A DNA stretch of 64,000 nt. Source: Candidatus Helarchaeota archaeon (GTDB lineage: Archaea > Asgardarchaeota > Lokiarchaeia > Helarchaeales > RDOG01). This document shows, one piece after another, positions 670-14,385 of this stretch. The first letter of the stretch is position 1. Each line of letters opens with the position of its first letter. The DNA lies in NCBI GenBank assembly GCA_019058315.1, contig JAHPZH010000001.1, forward strand, positions 245,566-309,565, written 5' to 3'. The notes below the pieces were generated by a model, which saw only the letters and a list, made by a program, of their open reading frames with translations, was not told where the DNA came from and did no database searches. The position numbers and the translations under genes are program-made.

Positions 670-1542
670 ATGTATTTTAAATCAGAAGATGGTGCAAATC
701 TTTTCTATGAAATTCAAGGGAAAAAAAACGGTAGACCACTAATCTTTTTGCATGGCTGGGGGGTAGGATCAGTATTTTTTAGTGAACAAATCCCTCCGCT
801 CGTTAAAGAAGGATATAAAGTTATAACTATGGATGCCAGATCACATGGAAAGAGTGATAGAGATACAAAATACATGGAATTATATAAGGATCGCATGTTA
901 GATCTTATGTATAAAGATTTTAAGAACTTTTTATACCACTTAGACTTAAAGGAAGAGTTTACTCTTATTGGTCATTCTGCTGGAGGGGGGATAAGCATCG
1001 CTTTTAGTAGTCTAACTGAATTAAAAGAAAAAATTGCATCTATAGTAATTATCAATTCTGGTTATACGATTTCGGAACATCCATCTGTTTTACTTTTATG
1101 GGAATTAGTTCCTCTCTTCGTTAATGTATTGTATAATCCATTATTACGAACAGGATATAAATTAGTCTTACGAAATGATGCAACTATTACTGCCTTGGCA
1201 TTAGCCCTTCAACAACCTCGTGAAAAGGTTAAAAGTTGGATAAACGATCTAATAAATATCCCAAAAGAGCAAATAATATTGGAATATCAAAATTTTAAAC
1301 GTTATAATCTGAAAGAACATTTGAAAGATATTAAGTGCCCCTCTTTAATTATTGGCGGTCAACTGGATATGGTAACTCCTGTTTATATGTCAAGACAGAT
1401 GGCAAAAGATATACCAAAATCAGAGTTATTTATTTTAAGAAACGCAGGACATTTTGCTATGCTTGAACAAGCTAAGCAAGTTAACAAAAAAATTCTTGAA
1501 TTCTTACGAGTACATTATCCTGCAAATGGTATATCTATTTAG
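670..1542 (+). CDS. alpha/beta hydrolase
   Basis: HGWG oxyanion motif, DARSHGKS, nucleophile GHSAGG, Asp (QLDMVTP) and His (AGHF). Start moved from 625 to ATG 670, which follows a GGTGA SD. Confidence 0.88.
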   Translation: MYFKSEDGANLFYEIQGKKNGRPLIFLHGWGVGSVFFSEQIPPLVKEGYKVITMDARSHGKSDRDTKYMELYKDRMLDLMYKDFKNFLYHLDLKEEFTLIGHSAGGGISIAFSSLTELKEKIASIVIINSGYTISEHPSVLLLWELVPLFVNVLYNPLLRTGYKLVLRNDATITALALALQQPREKVKSWINDLINIPKEQIILEYQNFKRYNLKEHLKDIKCPSLIIGGQLDMVTPVYMSRQMAKDIPKSELFILRNAGHFAMLEQAKQVNKKILEFLRVHYPANGISI

Positions 1543-2161
1543 TTTTCTTTATTTTTCCCAGAGCTTCTTTAGCCGCATTTTTAACTCCATCATCTTGATC
1601 ATTAGTTGCGGTTTCTAGAACTTCGATATATTTTTCTATTTCCTGAGGAACTTGAGACCCAATCTCTCCCAAAGCATATGCTGAATAATATCTAACTATC
1701 CAAGACTCATCTGATTTTAATCTTTGTGCTAAGTAATCTAATGTTGATCCAGATAAAATAAGGTCTGGAGCCTTATGACCAATATCTCCCAAAGATTTAG
1801 CTGCAGATCCTCTTGCCCCTTCATGTTCATCTTTTATTAAGACTGAAACTATATTTGGGATAATGTCTTTTATTATGTGGGGGTTACTTGCACCAATTTT
1901 ACCAAATGCTTTTGTAATGGACTCTCGAACCCAACCATCTTTTTCATTAATTAAATGCATAGACATGGATTGAATAGTAGTAGAAAAAAGCTCCTCCGGG
2001 AGGGATATTTTACCTAATTCTCCTAAAATTTGAGCGGAATACGATCTGATACTCCAATCTGGATTAGATAAAGAAGCAAGTAATACTTCAATCGCTTTTT
2101 TAGTTTCACCTTCTGCTACTAATTCGATTGCCTTTCTGACTAGATTTTCTTCAGTAGGCAT
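1535..2161 (-). CDS. HEAT (PBS-lyase-like) repeat protein
   Basis: Repeated D-x-x-W-x-(V/I)R-x-x-x-A-x-x-LG-x-IG units. Confidence 0.85.
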   Translation of the reverse strand: MPTEENLVRKAIELVAEGETKKAIEVLLASLSNPDWSIRSYSAQILGELGKISLPEELFSTTIQSMSMHLINEKDGWVRESITKAFGKIGASNPHIIKDIIPNIVSVLIKDEHEGARGSAAKSLGDIGHKAPDLILSGSTLDYLAQRLKSDESWIVRYYSAYALGEIGSQVPQEIEKYIEVLETATNDQDDGVKNAAKEALGKIKKTK

Positions 2162-2705: not shown

Positions 2706-3440
2706 ATGAAAAGAAAATCAAAGAAAGCTATAAAAAGGATAATGCTTTGTTTAAGCGTATTTATGTTAACGGGATTATTTTTTAATATTGTTTTTAATAA
2801 TAATTTATCCTTTGGCTGTCATGATTTAAGTTTTCAAGGTATAGGGGGAACTTCTCTAGTTATTTTTGGAATAGGAATGAATAGTTTTTCAGATTTTTTT
2901 ACACCGACTGATCAGAGGTCTGAATTAGAACAAAATACGCGATTACGTATTTATAATTTAATCCTTGAGGATGAAGGTATTCATTTACGAGAGGTCTGTA
3001 GAAAATTAAATAAGAAAATGGGGGTAATTCAATATCATATTAATGTATTAGAAAAAGCAGGGTTAATTAATTCGTTAAAAGATGGAAGGTATAGACGCTT
3101 TTTCGTGAATAATAACCATAGTTCAGATTCCAAAAGAAATCTAATAATTTCTGTTATAAAAAGAGAGCCATCTTTCAAAATATTACAAACTCTTATTGAA
3201 AATAAAAAAGTATACCACAATGATTTGGCAACACTTTTAAAAATTAGTAGTCAAGCAATAACTTGGCACATTAAAAGACTACGAGGATATGAACTTATTG
3301 ATTATGAAAAAGAAGGAAAGCAAAAAGTCTATTATATTCGTCAAGATGTATTACCGCTTCTAAAATCGATTTTAGAGAATGCAAAGTCAGGAATTAGTGG
3401 GGGTTCCGCACCACTTACAGAAACGCCAACTGGGATCTAA
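2706..3440 (+). CDS. Membrane-anchored tandem winged-helix transcriptional regulator
   Basis: Basic N-terminus plus hydrophobic segment(s), then two wHTH domains (GIHLREVCRKL..GVIQYHINVLEKAGLI; ISSQAITWHIKRL). Confidence 0.8.
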   Translation: MKRKSKKAIKRIMLCLSVFMLTGLFFNIVFNNNLSFGCHDLSFQGIGGTSLVIFGIGMNSFSDFFTPTDQRSELEQNTRLRIYNLILEDEGIHLREVCRKLNKKMGVIQYHINVLEKAGLINSLKDGRYRRFFVNNNHSSDSKRNLIISVIKREPSFKILQTLIENKKVYHNDLATLLKISSQAITWHIKRLRGYELIDYEKEGKQKVYYIRQDVLPLLKSILENAKSGISGGSAPLTETPTGI

Positions 3441-4082
3441 TAAAGTTCCACAATTTTTACATGTATTTTTCTCTTTAAACATATCTTCTTTTAATAAAAA
3501 GCCACACTTCTTACAAAAACGCCATTCTTTATTTATAACTTGTTGACAATTTGGACATCTGTTATAATCTTTTCCCTTTTTAATTATTTCATTTTCTTTT
3601 TGACTTGGAACACTATATTTTAACTTAATCATTTTACCCTCAATTTTAACATCTATTTCCGAAATTTTAGAGTACAATTGTTTGAAAGCATGTTGAATTT
3701 TTTTGAGTTCAACTGATTTAAAACCATCAAATTCGCGAGTTCGAAGAATTGAACCACAATTAGTACAAATATTCTCATTAAGTATTGACGAATCATTTAA
3801 ATGTTTTTGATGAAAAGGGAAACCACATTTTATGCATGATAAAGTCGGCTCATCATCTTCTAAACTTCGTTCGCATTTTGAACAAAGTAAATTTTTACTG
3901 GATTTTGACATTTGAATATCAAGCGACTTTAATTTGGCAAGATATTTTGCTTTAATAATTTTAAATAGATTAGGATCAATTTCTTTCATCTCCAGTTCCC
4001 TAGAAAGTATTTGTAATATATCTAAAATGATGTTACGTTCAACCATAATGTTAGAAAGAACTTCGAATTTTACATTATCCAT
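3387..4082 (-). CDS. RING-variant finger + double zinc-ribbon protein with N-terminal SHOCT/steadiness-box-like helical hairpin
   Basis: C-x2-C-x12-C-x2-C-x4-H-x2-H-x11-C-x2-C at 3756-3884; two C-x2-C-x10-C-x2-C (W-R-F-C) ribbons at the C-terminus; likely start ATG 4082 (track starts at TTG 4124). Confidence 0.75.
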   Translation of the reverse strand: MDNVKFEVLSNIMVERNIILDILQILSRELEMKEIDPNLFKIIKAKYLAKLKSLDIQMSKSSKNLLCSKCERSLEDDEPTLSCIKCGFPFHQKHLNDSSILNENICTNCGSILRTREFDGFKSVELKKIQHAFKQLYSKISEIDVKIEGKMIKLKYSVPSQKENEIIKKGKDYNRCPNCQQVINKEWRFCKKCGFLLKEDMFKEKNTCKNCGTLLDPSWRFCKWCGTPTNS

Positions 4083-4178
4083 AAATATAACTGTCCAAAT
4101 TAGTATTAAATTGCATACTATCAATAAAAGTGAAAAATTAATAAAAAATTAAAAAATAAAATTAATCTTAGAGATAAT

Positions 4179-4709
4179 TTATTCTTCTTCTACAGCAATC
4201 CCTGGAAAATACCATCTTTTGCCGGTAACACGATCTTTATGTGCCACAGCGATATTTTTTTCTTCGAGTTTTTTTATTTCTTGCTCTGCTATTTCTGAGT
4301 TTAGATTACATGCCTTCATTATTTCCTCTAGATTAGTCCAGCCTTTTTCTGCAGCTAATTCGATGATAGAATTTTCAATTCCTGTTAATTCTAGAGGTGT
4401 AAATTCAATTAGTACTATTTTTTTCTTTGTTTTCTTTATTGAAATCAATTTTTGATCTTTTAACTTATCAATTGCTTCATTCATTTCTTCAATAGATACT
4501 TGATCGCTTTGCATCCTCTTTTTATTTACTTCTAAAAATAATTGAGCAAGATCCATAATCCCATGACTTATATCAGGGTTCTTTCCAATTTCTAAGATTT
4601 CGTTAGTTAAACGCTCAATATTTGCTTTTTCAATTTCTTTCTTGGATAATTTTTCCCCTACTTTGATTTTTTTACCGCCAATTTTAACGGTAATTTTTCT
4701 TTGTGACAA
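4179..4709 (-). CDS. ESCRT-II Vps22/Vps36 (EAP30)-like tandem winged-helix protein
   Basis: Pattern EILEI..HGIMDLAQLF..VNKKR..VSIEEMNEAIDKLK..LIEFTPLEL..IIELAAEKGW..RWYFPG matches the recalled SNF8/Vps22 C-terminal WH pair (GLITLEEL..VSQDDLIRAIKKLK..LIQSVPAEL..YWLP). Confidence 0.8.
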   Translation of the reverse strand: MSQRKITVKIGGKKIKVGEKLSKKEIEKANIERLTNEILEIGKNPDISHGIMDLAQLFLEVNKKRMQSDQVSIEEMNEAIDKLKDQKLISIKKTKKKIVLIEFTPLELTGIENSIIELAAEKGWTNLEEIMKACNLNSEIAEQEIKKLEEKNIAVAHKDRVTGKRWYFPGIAVEEE

Positions 4710-4720
4710 ATTTGTTCTCC

Positions 4721-5749
4721 CTAATCTTCTCCTAATTCTTTTAATCTGTTTTTATATCTTGTCATCATTTTATCGTATCGTTCTTCAGAGATGGTTCCAT
4801 CTATGAGCTTTTCATCTAATTTTAACATTAATTCACGGATTTTTACAACTTCACTTGATTCAGTAGGTCTAGTTCTTGCTGTATCACTTTTGATAGGTCC
4901 CATTATATTAGCTAATACTTGTGAATCGTAAACAGTACCTATTCCGCCTCCTTTACGTCTTGCCAATTCCTGCATAGCTTTGATTTTTTCCATATCTAGC
5001 GCACTAATTCCTGCATCTTGGAGCATTTTATATCTCGTTATTTCCGCTTCTGCATCTGTTACAGAAACAACTTTTTGAGTATAGGCTTTTTCTATCTCAT
5101 CAGGAAGTTTAACACTTATTAAATTCAAATCAATAAATTTAATTCCAAATTCGTTAAACATCTCTCTGGATTTAACTCGTGCTATAGATTCAACAGTTTC
5201 TTTCTGGGTATACACTTCCATTGATCCCATTTTTGACAATGCAGAACCTAAAATTTCCATTATTTCATCTCTAACCCAATTTCGAATGTCACCTTCATAA
5301 TATTTAGGTTGACCTGCTACAAGATTGGTGAGAAATATTTTCGGATCTTCGATTTGAATCGTCACATTTCCATAAGAGCTCATAGGAATCCTATCACGGG
5401 ACATTATTTGCCCTTCAGGGATTCCAAATTTAATTTTTAAAAGGCCTAAATCGACAAAAGTATAATCTGAAACTATAAAGAATTTATCATCAACTTTATG
5501 TCTACCAGGCCCTAAGACATCATAAATTTTGCCGTCTCTATAATAAACACAAGCTTCTCCTTCTCGCACTAGGACATTTTTATCTCCTTTTGGGACCTCT
5601 TTTCCTTTTCGTCCACAGTAGAAACGTTTAATAATCTCCTTTCCTCTTCCTTTATCTTTTGATGGAGAAGTAACGTACATATCATCAAGTTCCGCTGGAG
5701 TATAGTCCTTTTCCCATCCTAATTTCCATTCTTTTCCCATTTTAATCAC
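4721..5749 (-). CDS. Soluble SPFH/band-7 protein (YdjI-like) with C-terminal SHOCT-like hairpin
   Basis: LVREGEACVYYRDGKIYDVLGPGRH, IEDPKIFLTNLV, FGIKFIDLNLISVKLPDEIEKA are SPFH hallmarks; no TM helix; C-terminal LDEKLIDGTISEERYDKM. Confidence 0.88.
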   Translation of the reverse strand: MIKMGKEWKLGWEKDYTPAELDDMYVTSPSKDKGRGKEIIKRFYCGRKGKEVPKGDKNVLVREGEACVYYRDGKIYDVLGPGRHKVDDKFFIVSDYTFVDLGLLKIKFGIPEGQIMSRDRIPMSSYGNVTIQIEDPKIFLTNLVAGQPKYYEGDIRNWVRDEIMEILGSALSKMGSMEVYTQKETVESIARVKSREMFNEFGIKFIDLNLISVKLPDEIEKAYTQKVVSVTDAEAEITRYKMLQDAGISALDMEKIKAMQELARRKGGGIGTVYDSQVLANIMGPIKSDTARTRPTESSEVVKIRELMLKLDEKLIDGTISEERYDKMMTRYKNRLKELGED

Positions 5750-6246
5750 TCCATTTCTATTATTTGTTTAGTCCCGGAAACAATATCAATACGTTCCTGG
5801 TATTTTTCTCTAAAATCTCTCATTTTTTTTATGACTTCACGTACCTGTTCAGTTACATCTTCTTTGCTGAACGCCCTACTATTAATATCTGAAGTATAAT
5901 CTTTAAGATCTTGAGCCATAAGTATAATTTCAGAGTCACAAGCTATCATTGCCTCTAATAATTTCTCTTGGATTGATACTACGTTCCAACCGGGTGCGTA
6001 TCCATATTCTGCTGTTTTAATTTTTGTGATGTAATTGTGAATATCGCCCCTAGCTTTTTCAATAATTTTCATAAGATCTTTGTTACCTGCGTTAACTGCA
6101 CTTTCCAGTGTACTGACCATATTTTCTTCACTTTCTTTCAAGAGCCTTATTGCTTTTTCTCTAACGACCCTATCGGTTTCTCGGCGTTCTTCCTTTTTTT
6201 TATAGCCACGATATCCTGGCACTAACTTCATCATCTTTCCTAACAA
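5746..6246 (-). CDS. Conserved all-helical protein (PG-Y-x-GY...ERRETD family)
   Basis: TTG start with AAGGAG SD; motifs VPGYRGYKKKEERRETD and AEYGYA; 4-nt overlap with SPFH gene; predicted helical bundle; function unknown. Confidence 0.7.
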   Translation of the reverse strand: MLGKMMKLVPGYRGYKKKEERRETDRVVREKAIRLLKESEENMVSTLESAVNAGNKDLMKIIEKARGDIHNYITKIKTAEYGYAPGWNVVSIQEKLLEAMIACDSEIILMAQDLKDYTSDINSRAFSKEDVTEQVREVIKKMRDFREKYQERIDIVSGTKQIIEME

Positions 6247-6685
6247 ATTTAATTCTCCTTATTGATTAATTGATATTTTTGTTCTAATTTTCCTCATGTA
6301 AAATTATTTTTAATTTGTACGTAAATTGTTACTTAAAATATATAATTTTATGGAAAATGGTAATGTAAATCGCATTTTTTTTTATGTTTTTTAATTTTTT
6401 TTATGTATAATAAGAATTAATAAAATTGATTAACTTTTTTATATAATCCGAAGTTTAAAGAGATGTTTTTACTAATTCTTATTAATAAAAATAAGAGAAT
6501 GATTAATTAATTTAAATTCAAAAATACAAATCAACCAAATTGCTATTATTTTTATTAAAAATTATGAATTTTAAAATTCTAGATTTTGATTATTAATATT
6601 TAAATTAATATTCACTAAAGGAAAAATATATTATATAGAAAACTAAACAAATTTGTAAATATCATTTTTCACGGGTGACCTAATC

Positions 6686-6886
6686 ATGAGTAAAATAGTA
6701 GAAATTGAGAAAAGTACAACCACAGTTGATAAATTAAAAACTAAAACTTTTATCGTTTTTAAAACAAGAGAACTGGCAAGTTTCATGAAAAAAATTCATG
6801 ATTTAATATCTGCTAATGATACGGCAACTGCTAGCCAAATGATCATCCAATTCCTTCAAGGGTTAGCTCATAAAATAAAAGGTTAA
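6686..6886 (+). CDS. Hypothetical protein, 66 aa
   Basis: GGTGA SD before ATG; T-rich tract after the stop. Confidence 0.6.
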   Translation: MSKIVEIEKSTTTVDKLKTKTFIVFKTRELASFMKKIHDLISANDTATASQMIIQFLQGLAHKIKG

Positions 6887-9537: not shown

Positions 9538-12500
9538 ATGAAAACTCAAAGTGTTCTAAAAAGATTAGTTATAATGTTTTTTTTCATTTTTTCACCATTT
9601 TTATCACTATTTTTACTTAATAATTCATCCTTTTCATTCCCTGATTTGAATAACCTTAAAAATAATTCTTATACAAACCCTCCCCTCTCAAAAACTCCTC
9701 TAAATCTTGGAACTTCAACAAACATTGCTATTAATGACCAAGGAAATGATCTTTCATATCAGGCGGTAGCTAATGTAACAGGAAGCACCTCATTTTTTCT
9801 AACTCCATTTCCCGTAGAAACAAACGTATGGAATATCACCTATACTTCTTTTAATATAACTAATATTAAGGCGGGCACAGTGATCCAGATTCAAGAAAAT
9901 GATAGTAATTCTCAGGAACCAGTAGATACAACAAAGTTATTTGCAAGGCAATTTTCTGTATATAATAGTTGTGTAATTAATAATTTTTCCATTTATAGAA
10001 GTGCCCTTGCTAATGATACTCTTCAACTCACTAACGGAAGCACCGTAAATGTCGATTATGGTCCATTAAATGTTTCCCTGATAATCTGGAATGCAACATT
10101 TTCAGGGCTCTGGTATGAACCTGATGAACCCATTAAAAAAACAACTTTAATAGATAATTATTATGGATGGGCAATGAATGGCTCTCCTCAGCATATTGAA
10201 TACCCAGAAATAGGCTGGGAAACCTTTGATATGAGTAATTTTTACTTAAATGCTGATAATACTCAAAACAATTTATTTTTCATTTCTATCAATACATCAA
10301 GAAGTAATTCAACTTATGATGGAAAACCCATTAGTTCCCATTATAGATGGTATTTACAAAATTCTACATTGTTTAGTCATTATACTGTAAATTCAACAGA
10401 TGGTGGCAATAATTGGGGTGTACCCACTATTCTTCCAACTTATTCTATGACTCTTAGAGTTATGCTCTCTCTCCCAGACACATTCTATCCCTCAAATATT
10501 AGTTTAACAATTGAGGGTATTCCTGTAAATGATACAACTACTACCAATCAAGGTAACTGGAAAAGATTGTATTTTTATCCCTATGATGGTGATAATTACG
10601 AATATTATTCAGCCTCATCAAATTGGCCAATTATTTCTTTTGACGTTTCATTTAATTGTACTATGAATAAAAGTGGATCTATTTCATCTTATTATTTAGC
10701 AAATGGAACAAAAGATTACATAGATTGGAATTCTACGCTAAATTTTGATCTTCCAAATAGTAATTTAAATAATACAATTCAAATAACGTTCCCAGTAAGT
10801 TGGAATATTACTTGGATTACTCCAAGTCAAAATTCAATAAATTTCACTCAAGGATCGAATAAAATTCTCGAAATTTATAATGGTACTGTTGGAAATATAA
10901 TAACATATTACAGGAGCCCTAATTATATAAACAAAATTTCCATTGAACAATATAAGGGTGGTACCGTATATTTGGATAGTGGATTTACTCAATATATTGA
11001 TGAAACGATCAGAATTAATGCCACATTCAGTAAAAATGTTACATCAGAAATTGCAAACCTTTCTATTTTTGATTTCAATAATAAAATAAATTATACCAAA
11101 CAACGAAATCCATTGAATGCTATTGTGTCATTTCCGAATTGGGATATTGAGACTACAACAAAATCTAATGGTTCATATTTGATTCGTATCTTTTGGACAA
11201 ATGGTACAGCTGTGGGAATAAATTCTACTATTCTCCATATTATATACCCAACAAAATCCTCCTTGATATCCCCCTCCACAACACAGATATTCTATAATCA
11301 ACCAATAAATTTAACAATTTATTTTGAAAACGATTTTTCAGATAATATTTATGGAGAAGTTGGAATCCAAAATGCAAATGTAACTGCAATATTTAATGAA
11401 ACATCAAATATTTACAATTTGAACGAAACTCTCGGAGCCGGTTATTATAATACCACAATAGACACCTCTGGTTTCGAAAATGGAACCTATGATCTTAATA
11501 TTACTATCCAAAAATATGGTTATCAAAATAAATCCTATAATTTACAAATTGAAATTCTCTATAATACTTCCTTATTTATAAATACAACCTCTCTAACAAT
11601 ATATTACTCTGAAACCTTTGATGTTGAACTTAACTATAATAGATCCGATCTTTATATCAATAATGGGGTTAATGCTTCTACAATTCAAGTTCTAATTAAC
11701 GGGACCGATGAAACTTCTAATATAACAATTGATAATACAGAAGAAAATGTAGGAAATTATACTTTACATTTCAACACTACTAATTGTAGTAATCTTCTGC
11801 CAAATTTTGCAATAATTATCATTAAAATTTCAAAACAAGGATTTTATGAAAGGCAAGCACAAATAAACATAACGATATTAAAGGCGATAACAACTTTAGA
11901 AAATTATACCATTATGAAAAGACGAGGCGGATTAGAAGTTTTTAATATTACAGTATTTTATAATAACACTATATTAAATAAGGGTATTAGCGGGGCTAAT
12001 TTCTCAATATATAAAGATGGTTTACTTATTGTTGAAGTTTTTTCTCTAACAGAATTGAATAATGATACTTTTTATCTATATGATTTTCAAAACGGAACAT
12101 ACAATATAGGAATGAATATAACGATAGGTAAGAACTATACAATGGAAATACTTATCGTATCAAATAAAATTGGCTATATTAACGGGAGTAAGACAGTATA
12201 CCAAGATATTTGGGTTCGTGCTACAATTGTTCCTATTTTTATTTTCTCCAACACTGTAACTTATGGTCAGAACCAAACAATAACCTTGCAATATAATGAA
12301 ACTGATGGAATTGGTATTTCTTCAGCAAATGTTTTTTCAACATGGGATGAAATTGGGTTCTTTGATGAATTTTTAACTGATTTTACGAATGGTACCTATA
12401 CTCTTACCTTTGATACTAACTTAACAATGGCTGGAAATCATTCAATTATTGTTCATGCCAGGAAAAATGGTTATGAATGGAATTCTACCACAATCACATT

Positions 12501-14385
12501 TCGTATTACTGGGTATCTCACAAATATTACCACCTTAAATTCAAGTATACATTTTATCTTTGTAAATGATTCAATCTTTAATATCCGAATCCGATATTAT
12601 AATATAAGTGATATTTTCAATATAAGCAATGGTAATGTTATATTTCAATTAAGAAATGGTAGTAATTATTTATTTGATTCAGAGGTCACATCAAACTATA
12701 TCTCATATCAAAACGAAACTAATGGAGAGTATAATTTCACAATTCATACCACAAGTCTACATGCAAGTATATACAGTTTAAATATCACAATTGAATTTCA
12801 TAATATTTCTATCGCTTTTGAATATAGTATAATTTCATTTATTATAAACATAACCCGACTACCTTCTAACCTAACATCTATATTACACACTGGAAATTGG
12901 TGGAAGAATCAAAATACTTCTCTGCAATGGTTTGAGTGTGAAAATATTACTATATATATTAATTTTAAAGCAGATTTTTATGATACTGGTGTTCCTATTG
13001 TAGGTAATGTTTCCTGGGGTAATTTATACTATGAAATTACTAAAGTTGGAGAGGTAATACCAGTACTTCAAGGACAATTCCTTAATCTTGGTGGTGGAAT
13101 TTATGAGGCTATTATAAATTTGAGCATGCCAATTCGAAGTAAGACATCAGAAAATTACAATTTAAGTATAACTGGAGTCGCTCTTGACGTTCAAAATGTG
13201 ACCACAGAAATAGATCTGAAAGTTATTGCAAAGAAGGAAATTTTGATACTGTTCCTCCCACTACAAGAAGAAATCGTTGAAAACGATATTATCCTAATAA
13301 GGATTCTTGCTTTGGATACTTTAGGACACCTTGCAAATGGTGAAACTCTAATAATTAATATTCATATTGCAACATCCGCTGGATATTATAATTTTAAAAT
13401 TCCTGTTAAAATAGTAGGTGGAGTTGCGGCTATTAATTTACAGATACCTTATAATGTTATAGGGATTGTAATTGAAGCTAAAACAGAAAGCTCTATGACG
13501 AGTTGGGCTTCTAAATCATACTATCAACCTGTTCCAACTTTGCCCCCTATTTATAATTCAGTAAGATTCTTAAGATTCGCTTGGCCATTTATAACTGCTT
13601 TTACAATAGCTGCTGTAGCACTCTATTACTATAAAAGAAAATATAAACCTAAAAAAATTAAACAGAAAGAAGTTCGGGATACTATTTCATATAGGTTTAA
13701 ATCAGCTGCAAATTTAGTTCATGTTCTAGTTTATGATCAAAAGACTTCCGAATTATTATATGTTTATTCCACTCCCGGTATTAGACTAACATCATATCTG
13801 ATTAATAGTATTTTAGAAAGTATCTCAATGTACGATAATATGACAGTTACACGTGAAGAAATTTATCTCAGAGATGATGCTCGGCTTATTTTACATGATG
13901 GTGAATTTGTTCGTATAGCTATGATAACTAAAGAATTACCTTCTGTTGAAATGCAAAAACAATTAGAGCACTTCTTAAGCGAATTTGAATTAAAATTCGG
14001 GAAAATGATACCTGAATGGAGGCAAGATATTTCTAGACTTGCACGTATGATGGATATGGGTTTTGCCAACGAATTAATTGAGCTGGCGTTTGAGAAATCC
14101 TTAACATTCCCTCATAATATAGCTCTACCCGAAGAAGGAGAAAAATTAACTGATTTAGAATCAGCACTCTATGAACTTGCTAAAAATATCCGTAGTAAAT
14201 CTGGACCATTTCTATTACAACGTCTTATTGCCAGAGGACATACCGAATTATCTCCAAAACCACTACTACAAATAATGGAAGGTGTATATAATTTACGTAA
14301 AAAGAAAGCTCTTATACCAATTAGTCCAAAGGAAGCTCAACGGTTAAAGGATGAAACTTTTAAAAAAGGAATTAATGGGAAATAA
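9538..14385 (+). CDS. Giant single-pass surface glycoprotein with Ig-like ectodomain and cytoplasmic longin-like domain
   Basis: Signal/TM N-terminus; Asn/Thr-rich beta repeats (G-x-Y-x-L-x-x-DT..K-x-GY) with very many NxS/T sequons; TM helix followed by YYYKRKYK; cytoplasmic beta-beta-alpha-beta-beta-beta-alpha pattern (VHVLVYD..LINSILESI..GEFVRIAMI..LEHFLSEFE). Confidence 0.75.
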   Translation: MKTQSVLKRLVIMFFFIFSPFLSLFLLNNSSFSFPDLNNLKNNSYTNPPLSKTPLNLGTSTNIAINDQGNDLSYQAVANVTGSTSFFLTPFPVETNVWNITYTSFNITNIKAGTVIQIQENDSNSQEPVDTTKLFARQFSVYNSCVINNFSIYRSALANDTLQLTNGSTVNVDYGPLNVSLIIWNATFSGLWYEPDEPIKKTTLIDNYYGWAMNGSPQHIEYPEIGWETFDMSNFYLNADNTQNNLFFISINTSRSNSTYDGKPISSHYRWYLQNSTLFSHYTVNSTDGGNNWGVPTILPTYSMTLRVMLSLPDTFYPSNISLTIEGIPVNDTTTTNQGNWKRLYFYPYDGDNYEYYSASSNWPIISFDVSFNCTMNKSGSISSYYLANGTKDYIDWNSTLNFDLPNSNLNNTIQITFPVSWNITWITPSQNSINFTQGSNKILEIYNGTVGNIITYYRSPNYINKISIEQYKGGTVYLDSGFTQYIDETIRINATFSKNVTSEIANLSIFDFNNKINYTKQRNPLNAIVSFPNWDIETTTKSNGSYLIRIFWTNGTAVGINSTILHIIYPTKSSLISPSTTQIFYNQPINLTIYFENDFSDNIYGEVGIQNANVTAIFNETSNIYNLNETLGAGYYNTTIDTSGFENGTYDLNITIQKYGYQNKSYNLQIEILYNTSLFINTTSLTIYYSETFDVELNYNRSDLYINNGVNASTIQVLINGTDETSNITIDNTEENVGNYTLHFNTTNCSNLLPNFAIIIIKISKQGFYERQAQINITILKAITTLENYTIMKRRGGLEVFNITVFYNNTILNKGISGANFSIYKDGLLIVEVFSLTELNNDTFYLYDFQNGTYNIGMNITIGKNYTMEILIVSNKIGYINGSKTVYQDIWVRATIVPIFIFSNTVTYGQNQTITLQYNETDGIGISSANVFSTWDEIGFFDEFLTDFTNGTYTLTFDTNLTMAGNHSIIVHARKNGYEWNSTTITFRITGYLTNITTLNSSIHFIFVNDSIFNIRIRYYNISDIFNISNGNVIFQLRNGSNYLFDSEVTSNYISYQNETNGEYNFTIHTTSLHASIYSLNITIEFHNISIAFEYSIISFIINITRLPSNLTSILHTGNWWKNQNTSLQWFECENITIYINFKADFYDTGVPIVGNVSWGNLYYEITKVGEVIPVLQGQFLNLGGGIYEAIINLSMPIRSKTSENYNLSITGVALDVQNVTTEIDLKVIAKKEILILFLPLQEEIVENDIILIRILALDTLGHLANGETLIINIHIATSAGYYNFKIPVKIVGGVAAINLQIPYNVIGIVIEAKTESSMTSWASKSYYQPVPTLPPIYNSVRFLRFAWPFITAFTIAAVALYYYKRKYKPKKIKQKEVRDTISYRFKSAANLVHVLVYDQKTSELLYVYSTPGIRLTSYLINSILESISMYDNMTVTREEIYLRDDARLILHDGEFVRIAMITKELPSVEMQKQLEHFLSEFELKFGKMIPEWRQDISRLARMMDMGFANELIELAFEKSLTFPHNIALPEEGEKLTDLESALYELAKNIRSKSGPFLLQRLIARGHTELSPKPLLQIMEGVYNLRKKKALIPISPKEAQRLKDETFKKGINGK

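Follow-up and report, generated by a model that had tools for sequence, protein, structure and literature searches.

In Bacillus subtilis, the pspA-ydjGHI (samGHI) genes encode YdjI, a Band_7_1-type SPFH protein with a zinc ribbon, YdjG with two zinc ribbons, and PspA (PMC11237479; PMC13713150). The SPFH protein is regarded as a platform beneath the membrane on which a protein of the ESCRT-III superfamily would act (Scholz 2021, cited in PMC10936438). In archaea, a protein combining SPFH, coiled-coil and zinc-ribbon parts occurs in the 'Meth_adaptin' ESCRT neighbourhoods of methanogens, for which the authors also draw the YdjI–PspA comparison (Makarova et al. 2024, PMC10936438). The canonical Vps22-like protein of Asgard ESCRT-II corresponds to asCOG cog.002769 (Hatano 2022; Makarova 2024, PMC10936438), and in eukaryotes flotillin-1 has been linked with ESCRT-0/I (Meister 2017, as cited in PMC10936438). 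Here, we describe an operon of four co-oriented minus-strand genes from a Candidatus Helarchaeota archaeon contig, in which an SPFH gene stands next to a gene of the ESCRT-II EAP30 family.

Organization and conservation of the operon

The features of the operon, numbered within the 64,000-nucleotide stretch analysed (the window), are as follows.

6247 to 6685, no strand: AT-rich intergenic region 5' of the operon, presumed promoter region (GC 0.137–0.24 over 6151–6750)
5746 to 6246, minus strand: gene 1 (P0001), four-helix-bundle protein, 166 aa
4721 to 5749, minus strand: gene 2 (P0002), TM-less SPFH protein of Band_7_1/YdjI-like type
4179 to 4709, minus strand: gene 3 (P0003), EAP30-family (Vps22/36-like) tandem winged-helix protein, 176 aa
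3387 to 4124, minus strand: gene 4 (P0004), zinc protein with a helical hairpin, an eight-ligand zinc finger and a double zinc ribbon
3900 to 4079, minus strand: N-terminal helical hairpin of gene 4 with a suggestive resemblance to a steadiness box (residues 2–61 from M15)
3756 to 3884, minus strand: eight-ligand zinc finger of gene 4 (residues 67–109 from M15)
3399 to 3557, minus strand: C-terminal double zinc ribbon of gene 4, two C4 ribbons (DZR match)

Genes 1 and 2 overlap by 4 nt if the SPFH gene starts at GTG, or are 5 nt apart with the ATG used by its relatives; genes 2 and 3 are separated by 11 nt, and genes 3 and 4 by 54 nt (TTG start) or 96 nt (ATG, M15). The ATG at 5740 appears the more likely start of P0002 (339 aa, versus 342 aa from GTG), and its orthologues begin MGK. 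For P0004, the ATG at 4082 (M15) is likewise the more likely start (231 aa, versus 245 aa from TTG), and six homologues of 230–231 aa all begin M-D/E-N. The ORF positions agree with the four co-oriented genes and spacing reported in the first-pass annotation, as does the composition of the long AT-rich upstream region (13.7% GC at 6301–6600). This intergenic region is common to the operon and a divergent conserved 66-aa ORF (6686–6886, plus strand), and a separate regulator with two wHTH domains adjoins the operon at 2706–3440.

Purifying selection acts on each of the four genes, with dN/dS values against the L002 orthologues of 0.05–0.21 (0.05 for gene 1, 0.18 for gene 3 and 0.21 for gene 4), and the gene order is retained in relatives at 70–94% identity. 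With the zinc protein taken from M15, a search for TM segments was negative for all four products. The four genes constitute a real conserved module that is wholly soluble (peripheral), and their products very probably form a functional unit. That the operon is a real module had been proposed from this window; the association of its parts proves to be conserved elsewhere, gene fusions included.

Structural features of the four products

The AF2 model of P0001 is a confident four-helix bundle (pLDDT 87.7) with helices at residues 18–53, 56–78, 94–126 and 132–157. Its family, so far uncharacterised, is the conserved partner of Band_7_1 SPFH genes and is marked by the motifs PGYRGYK..RRE.D and TA.YGY.P; the protein falls into no Pfam family, its model has no PDB fold match at E<0.1 in Foldseek, and it weakly matches the NCBIfam model LIMLP_15305_fam (E 2.3e-6). 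A PspA/ESCRT-III-like identity was considered and rejected, given the compact four-helix bundle and no PspA or ESCRT-III match in the PDB (Foldseek). The first-pass description of a 'Psp-like scaffold' is therefore valid only for the YdjI-type SPFH protein, and not for the helical protein.

P0002 matches Band_7 (PF01145; E 1.7e-18, 67.7 bits against a cut-off of 23.6) and Band_7_1 (PF13421; E 7.6e-15, 55.5 bits against a cut-off of 24), and its nearest solved chains are those of stomatin (E 1e-3). It has no TM anchor, as no 19-residue hydrophobic window reaches 1.6, and no cysteine ribbons, so that the C-terminal zinc ribbon of the COG4260-type architecture is absent. In Thermoproteota and in a paralogous 'type B' operon, however, the SPFH polypeptide itself carries a double zinc ribbon homologous to that of gene 4.

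P0003 matches EAP30 (PF04157) over profile positions 90–215 of 219, scoring 33.3 bits (cut-off 26.8), and likewise exceeds the cut-off in a genome-wide scan (31.4 bits). In a single-sequence PDB search its top five matches are ESCRT-II subunits (VPS36, SNF8 and Vps22; E 0.017–0.066), whereas transcription factors reach 0.4, about 20-fold weaker than the best ESCRT-II match. Profile A4, in which canonical Asgard Vps22 is included, finds SNF8 at E 4.7e-20 and the best transcription factor at 8e-4. A generic wHTH identity was rejected, as the profile search places ESCRT-II about 16 orders of magnitude ahead of transcription factors, and the Vps22/36-like assignment of the 4179–4709 product stands on Pfam, PDB and profile searches alike. 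Pfam matches also agree with the SPFH protein, the tandem winged helix and the double zinc ribbon claimed initially. The N-terminal helical domain, which serves Vps22–Vps36 pairing and carries the steadiness-box extension in Asgard, is absent from P0003 (profile positions 1–89 unmatched), and only about 45 residues, a lysine-rich basic segment, precede the first winged helix.

P0004 consists of three parts. Its N-terminal hairpin is modelled by AF2 at pLDDT 75–88. With VIA, five of the top seven matches are CdvA or ESCRT-I Vps23/TSG101 hairpins at Z 6.5–7.1, with values below 8 being common for hairpins, and Foldseek aligns the hairpin with 6vme at probability 0.92–0.97, rmsd 0.6 Å over 51 columns and 27% identity, yet at E 0.6–1. 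The likeness to a steadiness-box hairpin is thus suggestive only. The zinc finger has the ligand pattern C-x2-C-x12-C-x2-C-x4-H-x2-H-x11-C-x2-C, a PHD/RING-CH-like spacing, and all eight ligands are invariant in seven sequences down to 44% identity. Its model has a pLDDT of 64–82, and whole-protein fold searches were filled by matches to the hairpin. No RING family of Pfam reaches its cut-off on the finger: Prok-RING_1, the best RING model, gives E 0.035 and 14.5 bits against 29.1, and C1_1 is also sub-threshold (21.4 bits against 26.5). The earlier assignment as a RING-variant or E3 protein thus retains the resemblance in ligand spacing, but not a significant RING match. The C-terminal double zinc ribbon matches DZR (PF12773; residues 190–240, E 5.6e-14, 52.5 bits against a cut-off of 27.3) and is 37% identical to the C-terminus of the SPFH–DZR fusion proteins of L004 and L045.

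ESCRT genes of the same genome

Gene 3 lies on contig C3 next to the SPFH gene, and not in the ubiquitin–ESCRT locus on contig C10; the expectation that the canonical locus would lie outside the window was correct. The genome contains Vps25 (L013:6608–7438), Vps4 and three Snf7 genes, with the E1, E2 and ubiquitin genes also at L013. Canonical Vps22, Vps28 and PspA were not found in this genome (94% complete), including by the PspA model PF04012, which was positive as a control in nine genomes. As no canonical Vps22 was found and Vps25 is kept, P0003 is the best Vps22/36 relative in the genome, although a canonical Vps22 could sit in the missing part. None of the SPFH-containing loci examined adjoins an ESCRT-III, Vps4 or Vps25 gene. 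The only examined locus with such a neighbour, L046, has no SPFH gene.

Distribution of the core cassette and recurrence of the EAP30 adaptor

We found 399 relatives of gene 1. Of 80 loci from Thermoproteota and Chloroflexota, 69 have an SPFH gene directly after the helical gene. Among Asgard archaea, 108 of 201 genomes contain the helical gene. The helical and SPFH genes, with or without a zinc ribbon, are an old and widespread prokaryotic cassette. An Asgard origin of the core cassette was rejected because of this spread; the special part is the EAP30 addition. Most Asgard genomes with the pair have no EAP30 gene within 1.5 kb, indicating that the pair works without EAP30. The module is patchily distributed: searches for its helical gene were negative in five other species of the same order (82–94% complete) and in 43 sister-family genomes.

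An EAP30-family adaptor accompanies the cassette in at least three Asgard lineages. The type B operon of Helarchaeota encodes a helical protein, an SPFH–DZR fusion, two zinc proteins and an EAP30-like protein, with parts 23–30% identical to those of the present operon. In Sifarchaeia/Borrarchaeum (WP_287587870.1 cluster), the helical bundle and EAP30 are fused in a 386-aa protein (PF04157, E 7e-17), with the SPFH gene 18 nt downstream and a DZR protein upstream. In four of four further helical–EAP30 fusion clusters (P0037, P0066, P0067 and P0018), an SPFH gene comes directly after the fusion gene. By comparison, none of 30 canonical Vps22-like control loci has an SPFH gene within 1.5 kb. Because the parts recur and are sometimes fused, they probably work together. 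In addition, one of these fusion pairs, that of L205, is flanked by JAB and E2 genes, flanks that would fit a ubiquitin theme, and the L206 and L203 pairs adjoin proteins with UFL1/DDRGK-type winged helices. The EAP30 tree did not separate single from repeated recruitment.

Possible mechanism of the module

We moderately favour the explanation that an ancient cassette of SPFH and helical-bundle proteins had an ESCRT-II-family adaptor added in several Asgard lineages. The SPFH protein would oligomerise under the membrane, as suggested by its family (e.g., B. subtilis YdjI/SamI), with the helical-bundle protein as a putative obligate partner, judging from conservation of the gene pair. The fusions elsewhere suggest that the EAP30 adaptor would be held on the scaffold via the helical-bundle protein, and the zinc-ribbon/zinc-finger protein may supply the zinc modules found on the SPFH polypeptide itself in other lineages. 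The winged helices thus displayed would most plausibly recruit Vps25 and, via Vps25, Snf7-type ESCRT-III, and possibly also cargo tagged with ubiquitin-like proteins; the module could thereby repair or remodel membranes locally, or control the quality of membrane proteins. We infer the coupling to ESCRT-III or ubiquitin, and that the unit feeds into either machinery is a tentative proposal, somewhat short of probable.

Alternatively, the SPFH/helical-bundle assembly may need neither Vps25 nor ESCRT-III, with the tandem winged helix contributing only to its structure or regulation. Such a module could, for example, organise membrane microdomains, control proteases or cargo, or buffer stress, and the EAP30 domain would have been recruited because winged-helix pairs are convenient protein–protein modules. 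The helical–SPFH pair is widespread where ESCRT-II is absent; to our knowledge, Chloroflexota lack ESCRT-II. In Chloroflexota/Anaerolineae and L202, the same pair is coupled to an unrelated protein with a PCI-type winged helix and a zinc ribbon, which argues that the role of the winged helix may lie in the scaffold itself. The missing Vps22/36 pairing domain of P0003 and the lack of a linked ESCRT-III or Vps4 gene at every SPFH-containing locus examined point the same way. However, what at least three Asgard lineages use is specifically an EAP30-family adaptor, in one case encoded among JAB and E2 genes, and the own genome seems to have no other Vps22/36 relative, yet keeps Vps25. We regard ESCRT independence as rather unlikely.

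It is improbable that P0003 is a DNA-binding regulator held by the scaffold and freed upon envelope stress, in the manner of Psp/Lia-type signalling. EAP30 winged helices are established protein-binding modules, and a separate regulator with two wHTH domains (2706–3440) is already next door. The winged-helix fold and lysine-rich N-terminus of P0003 would suit such a role, and MarR/AdcR-type repressors follow ESCRT-II as weaker profile matches (E ~1e-3), but transcription factors score below ESCRT-II in both profile and single-sequence searches. SamI (YdjI) is reported to link membrane stress with differentiation in B. subtilis (PMC13713150). In other lineages, EAP30 and the helical bundle are permanently joined in one polypeptide, as would be expected of a scaffold subunit more than of a factor to be released. 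A chance neighbourhood, in which P0003 would be a displaced, truncated ESCRT-II subunit in a genome where no canonical Vps22-like gene was found, is highly improbable, as the adjacency is conserved in orthologous loci, in the paralogous operon and, as fusions, in other classes, and canonical Vps22-like genes never show it.

Comparison with known systems

We found no publication describing a helical–SPFH–EAP30–zinc module, and the main text and available supplements of Makarova 2024 (PMC10936438) do not mention the present Asgard arrangement. Like pspA-ydjGHI, the operon encodes a TM-less Band_7_1 SPFH protein together with double-zinc-ribbon modules. It differs in that neither operon nor genome yielded a PspA and that YdjG/YdjH-like membrane anchors are missing; the partner is an uncharacterised four-helix bundle whose fold is not PspA-like, and the operon includes an EAP30 adaptor, a protein absent from bacteria. 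P0003 shares the tandem winged-helix core with the canonical Asgard Vps22-like protein P0013 (36% identity). By comparison, it has 176 aa instead of about 245, without the N-terminal helical/steadiness-box part, and its gene accompanies an SPFH gene rather than those of UEV, Vps28, Vps25 and Vps4.

As in the Meth_adaptin neighbourhoods, an SPFH–zinc-ribbon protein and ESCRT parts are linked by gene context in archaea. There, in genomes of the Methanosarcinales type, the SPFH gene occurs with Vps4, ESCRT-III, adaptin-appendage and GOLD proteins, whereas the Asgard SPFH gene occurs with an ESCRT-II-family adaptor and a four-helix bundle, away from Vps4 and ESCRT-III. In eukaryotes, the SPFH proteins ERLIN1/2 partner RNF170, and the likeness of the flotillin and ERLIN links is one of concept, an SPFH scaffold acting with parts of the ESCRT or ubiquitin machinery, rather than of demonstrated homology of the partners. 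These links are protein interactions rather than operons, and their SPFH proteins are TM- or lipid-anchored.

The Sifarchaeia/Borrarchaeum operon, like the present one, combines a helical bundle, an EAP30 tandem winged helix, SPFH and DZR. It is distinct in that the helical bundle and EAP30 form one polypeptide, a zinc ribbon lies at the SPFH N-terminus, the DZR is carried by a 503-aa beta-sandwich protein, and the genomes retain a canonical Vps22-like gene, of which none was found in the present genome. What sets the Asgard module apart is the EAP30 adaptor added to a widespread helical–SPFH–zinc-ribbon core.

Organization of the operon

The operon lies on contig C3 of an Asgard genome (5.8 Mb, 12 contigs, 94% complete) and comprises four open reading frames:

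5746-6246, minus strand: gene 1, helical-bundle protein (P0001)
4721-5749, minus strand: gene 2, SPFH protein (P0002)
4179-4709, minus strand: gene 3, EAP30 (Vps22/36-like) protein of 176 aa (P0003)
3387-4124, minus strand: gene 4, zinc protein (P0004)

The four-gene arrangement described in the first-pass annotation is confirmed; the spacing between the genes agrees with that description, and the low-GC stretch upstream of the operon is present (~14–24% GC). Judging by relatives, the SPFH gene probably starts at the ATG at 5740, and the zinc protein, with M15 (4082) as its first residue, is probably 231 aa long. Pfam searches identified Band_7 (E 1.7e-18) and Band_7_1 (E 7.6e-15) in gene 2, EAP30 in gene 3 (33.3 bits, over the gathering score of 26.8) and the double zinc ribbon DZR in gene 4 (E 5.6e-14), and assigned no family to gene 1; none of the four products contains a transmembrane (TM) segment. 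Relative to orthologues of ~56–80% identity, the four genes have dN/dS values of 0.05–0.21, and all four are therefore real genes. A search of sequencing runs returned a single possible source run, together with partial matches to sediment metagenomes, with 0.06 of the words present in the sole RNA run.

Several neighbouring genes are also conserved in related loci. A 66-aa ORF (6686-6886, plus strand) is divergent from the operon and keeps its position in L001, L002, L004 and L005; it belongs to no family, shares 77% identity with the L002 copy (dN/dS 0.23), and could act as a small regulator or form a fifth component. At the other end, a regulator with two winged helix-turn-helix domains (2706-3440, plus strand) is convergent with the operon, overlapping its end by 54 nt, and beyond it a HEAT-repeat protein of 208 aa is encoded (1535-2161, minus strand), which matches Adaptin_N weakly; both are kept in L001 and L003. 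A 1615-aa ORF without any Pfam match (9538-14385, plus strand) adjoins an NTP-transferase/phosphomannomutase fusion gene, a neighbourhood kept in L001 and L002.

Identity of the gene 3 product

Judged by sequence comparison, gene 3 is a bona fide EAP30 family member at the level of its two winged helices. The best five PDB matches obtained with the single sequence comprise human VPS36, human SNF8 and yeast Vps22, and the alignments extend to a C-terminal aromatic-F/Y-P motif; the N-terminal helical part of the family (profile positions 1–89) is absent. With EAP30 over its gathering score and ESCRT-II subunits at the top of the PDB list, the proposal that this protein is Vps22/36-like rather than a generic winged helix-turn-helix protein holds.

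P0003 and P0004 were also considered as a split form of the Asgard protein cog.002441, in which three zinc ribbons and a steadiness box accompany two winged helices. This reading is unsupported by comparison: none of the EAP30 representatives, not even the zinc-ribbon-bearing P0015, is similar to P0004 in sequence.

Features of the helical-bundle, SPFH and zinc proteins

The gene 1 product is modelled confidently as a four-helix bundle (pLDDT 87.7, pTM 0.85; alignment of 78 sequences). Neither a sequence profile nor Foldseek gives a PDB match at E<0.1, and its Atlas neighbours are exclusively unnamed 'hypothetical protein' clusters. The fold of this compact bundle is not that of PspA or ESCRT-III, and the 'Psp-like' label given to the system is rejected as far as gene 1 is concerned. 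For the SPFH protein, there is no Pfam match to SHOCT at the C-terminus at E<=1.

Gene 4 encodes an N-terminal helical hairpin, an eight-ligand C4-H-H-C2 finger and a double zinc ribbon. The eight ligands are invariant among homologues, and no Pfam RING model is significant, so that the RING/E3 label first attached to this protein reduces to a resemblance in ligand spacing. The best structural neighbours of the hairpin include CdvA and the steadiness-box hairpins of ESCRT-I Vps23/TSG101, with scores in the common hairpin range; both fold searches of the P0004 model are dominated by the hairpin, not the finger, and an Atlas feature search with residues 15–160 gave no usable match. The EAP30-like protein carries the motif V-K-I-x-G-K-x-I-K at its N-terminus (residues 6–18; 4656-4694, minus strand), and the zinc protein carries it mid-sequence (residues 143–156 from M15; 3615-3656, minus strand); the motif is kept in homologues of both and may be a docking hairpin common to P0003 and P0004.

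Distribution of the helical-SPFH cassette

The gene 1 family has 399 relatives confirmed by tblastn in GTDB species genomes. The best 80 of these 399 belong to Thermoproteota (Desulfurococcaceae, Sulfolobales, Thermofilum, Caldarchaeum and Bathyarchaeota) and Chloroflexota (Anaerolineae), and in 69 of these best 80 loci the next gene encodes a Band_7_1 SPFH protein, often with C-terminal zinc ribbons. The family is present in 108 of 201 Asgard genomes, but was not found in any of 43 genomes of the two sister families in the same class or in five other species of the same order. In view of this distribution, the helical bundle, SPFH protein and zinc ribbon constitute a widespread but patchy prokaryotic unit. 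The searchable literature yielded no description of the unit under any name, and the sole family label matching gene 1, NCBIfam LIMLP_15305, scores far under its cut-off. Our survey defines a large uncharacterised family of four-helix-bundle proteins that partner Band_7_1 SPFH proteins in the Thermoproteota, the Chloroflexota and Asgard archaea.

In nine Desulfurococcaceae-type loci (L072:5628-6608 and eight others), the second gene past the helical one, immediately following SPFH, encodes a conserved protein of 326 aa whose matches to MIT and TPR are weak and sub-threshold. An MIT domain, if real, would suggest interactions of the ESCRT-III/Vps4 type in Thermoproteota.

Association with EAP30 proteins in operons and fusions

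The gene association is specific and recurs elsewhere. In orthologous operons of 70–94% identity the gene order is unchanged, with the separate zinc gene absent in two metagenome-assembled genomes. A paralogous 'type B' operon of Helarchaeota, found in L045 and in L004, where it adjoins an operon orthologous to that described here (type A), encodes a helical protein (26% identity), an SPFH-DZR fusion (23–30%), two more zinc-finger proteins and a 178-aa EAP30-like protein (29%). Furthermore, in Sifarchaeia/Borrarchaeum a 386-aa protein consists of the helical bundle (residues 8–178) fused to EAP30 (PF04157, E 7e-17); a zinc-ribbon-SPFH gene lies 18 nt downstream and a DZR protein gene upstream. 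An HMM of the helical domain finds further fusions among EAP30 family representatives clustered at 50% identity, and in all four on readable contigs the SPFH gene directly follows the fusion. These gene fusions argue for physical contact of the helical-bundle protein with the EAP30 adaptor.

The window's own genome holds a second EAP30-SPFH adjacency on contig C5 (L014:5641-10388):

EAP30 protein: 557 aa, one TM segment, C-terminal EAP30 of 26.1 bits
SPFH protein: 235 aa, 4 nt after the EAP30 gene
Multi-TM protein: 786 aa, after the SPFH gene, C-terminal zinc-ribbon hint
GvpD/KaiC-like ATPase: opposite strand, adjoining the EAP30 gene upstream

A hidden helical-bundle domain in the 557-aa protein is unsupported (hhalign probability 1.9%). 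None of 30 canonical Vps22-like loci has an SPFH gene within 1.5 kb. Of two other long EAP30 proteins, P0031 (570 aa) has a PLD-like gene rather than SPFH after it, and P0039 is encoded at the very end of its contig. In the tree of winged-helix cores at least three label changes are forced, and the deep nodes do not settle one recruitment versus more. Separately, an OB_Ssb-like gene adjoins EAP30-family genes in three unrelated contexts (L004:9414-10025, L005:4208-4933 and L046:3492-4040), in L046 together with a Snf7 gene.

Neighbouring genes and the ubiquitin-ESCRT locus

In L205, genes for JAB (E 6.8e-11) and E2 (E 3.3e-16) proteins flank the fusion-SPFH pair, and in L206 and L203 the pair adjoins genes whose products carry winged helices of the UFL1/DDRGK type. 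In six Anaerolineae loci (including L060:6393-6920 and L104:6370-6900) and on one archaeal contig (L202:2443-3429), the helical-SPFH pair has as its neighbour a protein that combines a PCI-type winged helix with a zinc ribbon at the C-terminus, apparently a non-EAP30 counterpart of genes 3 and 4.

The canonical ubiquitin-ESCRT locus, correctly noted as missing from the window, is on contig C10 (L013:2900-12600). It encodes E1, E2, ubiquitin, an 87-aa RING-like protein, UEV, a 276-aa Vps25, Vps4, three Snf7 proteins and a HerA-like ATPase, with no Vps22-like or Vps28 gene; neither these two nor PspA was found elsewhere in the 94%-complete genome, in which the best relative of a canonical Vps22-like protein (P0013) is P0003. 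Complex prediction for P0003 and Vps25 (residues 90–276), both as alignments, gave a score of 0.00 without controls, which has no bearing either way. IFT52_GIFT/ABC_transp_aux-like proteins occur at the ubiquitin-ESCRT locus (L013:2013-2849) and on an unrelated contig (L206:3560-4795), there adjoining a helical-EAP30 fusion and SPFH pair. A reading as a defence system was discarded, PADLOC giving weak spurious matches alone (LeoBC, 17.6 bits; Cas12f zinc finger, 20.5 bits).

Discussion

Of the earlier interpretation, the reality of the module and its EAP30 link stand, and the ESCRT-III and E3 steps are putative. The four products very likely form a real module; its coupling to ESCRT or ubiquitin is put forward tentatively. 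The SPFH/helical-bundle assembly is most likely a sub-membrane scaffold, which would display the EAP30 winged helices and zinc modules to recruit partners. In B. subtilis, a YdjI-type SPFH protein works with an ESCRT-III-superfamily protein. If the same applies here, the Snf7 proteins are the only candidate partners, and we infer that the EAP30 adaptor would reach them by the obvious route, Vps25.

The main rival, which we consider somewhat doubtful, is that the winged helix serves the scaffold only, as the Chloroflexota PCI-type proteins must, and is unrelated to ESCRT-III. Less likely, and quite improbable, is a sequestered DNA-binding regulator: a profile including the canonical Asgard Vps22 matches SNF8 at E 4.7e-20 versus ~1e-3 for MarR-type regulators. 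Chance adjacency is excluded by conservation.

ESCRT-II is a eukaryotic signature complex. In the loci described here, operons and gene fusions repeatedly connect an ESCRT-II-family adaptor to a conserved SPFH-scaffold partner, which gives a testable hypothesis of an ESCRT-I-independent route to ESCRT-III and of a link between SPFH microdomains and sorting/ubiquitin machinery before eukaryotes. In its fullest form, which is unlikely as a whole, the SPFH scaffold would be an alternative upstream recruiter of ESCRT-II/III in several Asgard lineages, in place of ESCRT-0/I; the EAP30 adaptor, tethered via the four-helix bundle, would bind Vps25 and set off Snf7 filament formation on membrane patches that are damaged or loaded with cargo, and the zinc modules, in some lineages with JAB and E2, would read or write a ubiquitin-like tag. 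If true, this would functionally bridge the YdjI-PspA system of bacteria and the eukaryotic pathway from ESCRT-II to ESCRT-III, and would make the module a prokaryotic precursor of the connections that flotillin and erlin have with ESCRT and ubiquitin in eukaryotes.

Comparison with known systems

The PSP survey (PMC11237479) describes PspA with the band-7 and zinc-ribbon proteins of the ydj operon. Makarova et al. (PMC10936438) reported widely diverse Asgard ESCRT-II architectures, and SPFH-ESCRT links in the 'Meth_adaptin' loci of methanogens; its main text and available supplements make no mention of an SPFH-EAP30 module. Those loci differ from ours in combining SPFH with Vps4, ESCRT-III, adaptin and GOLD proteins. 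Our analysis additionally provides the split Helarchaeota forms, the recognition of the fusions' N-terminal domain as a widespread family of SPFH partners, and a broader view of where the cassette occurs. The module joins two elements of known kinds, a YdjI-type SPFH cassette and an Asgard ESCRT-II paralogue.
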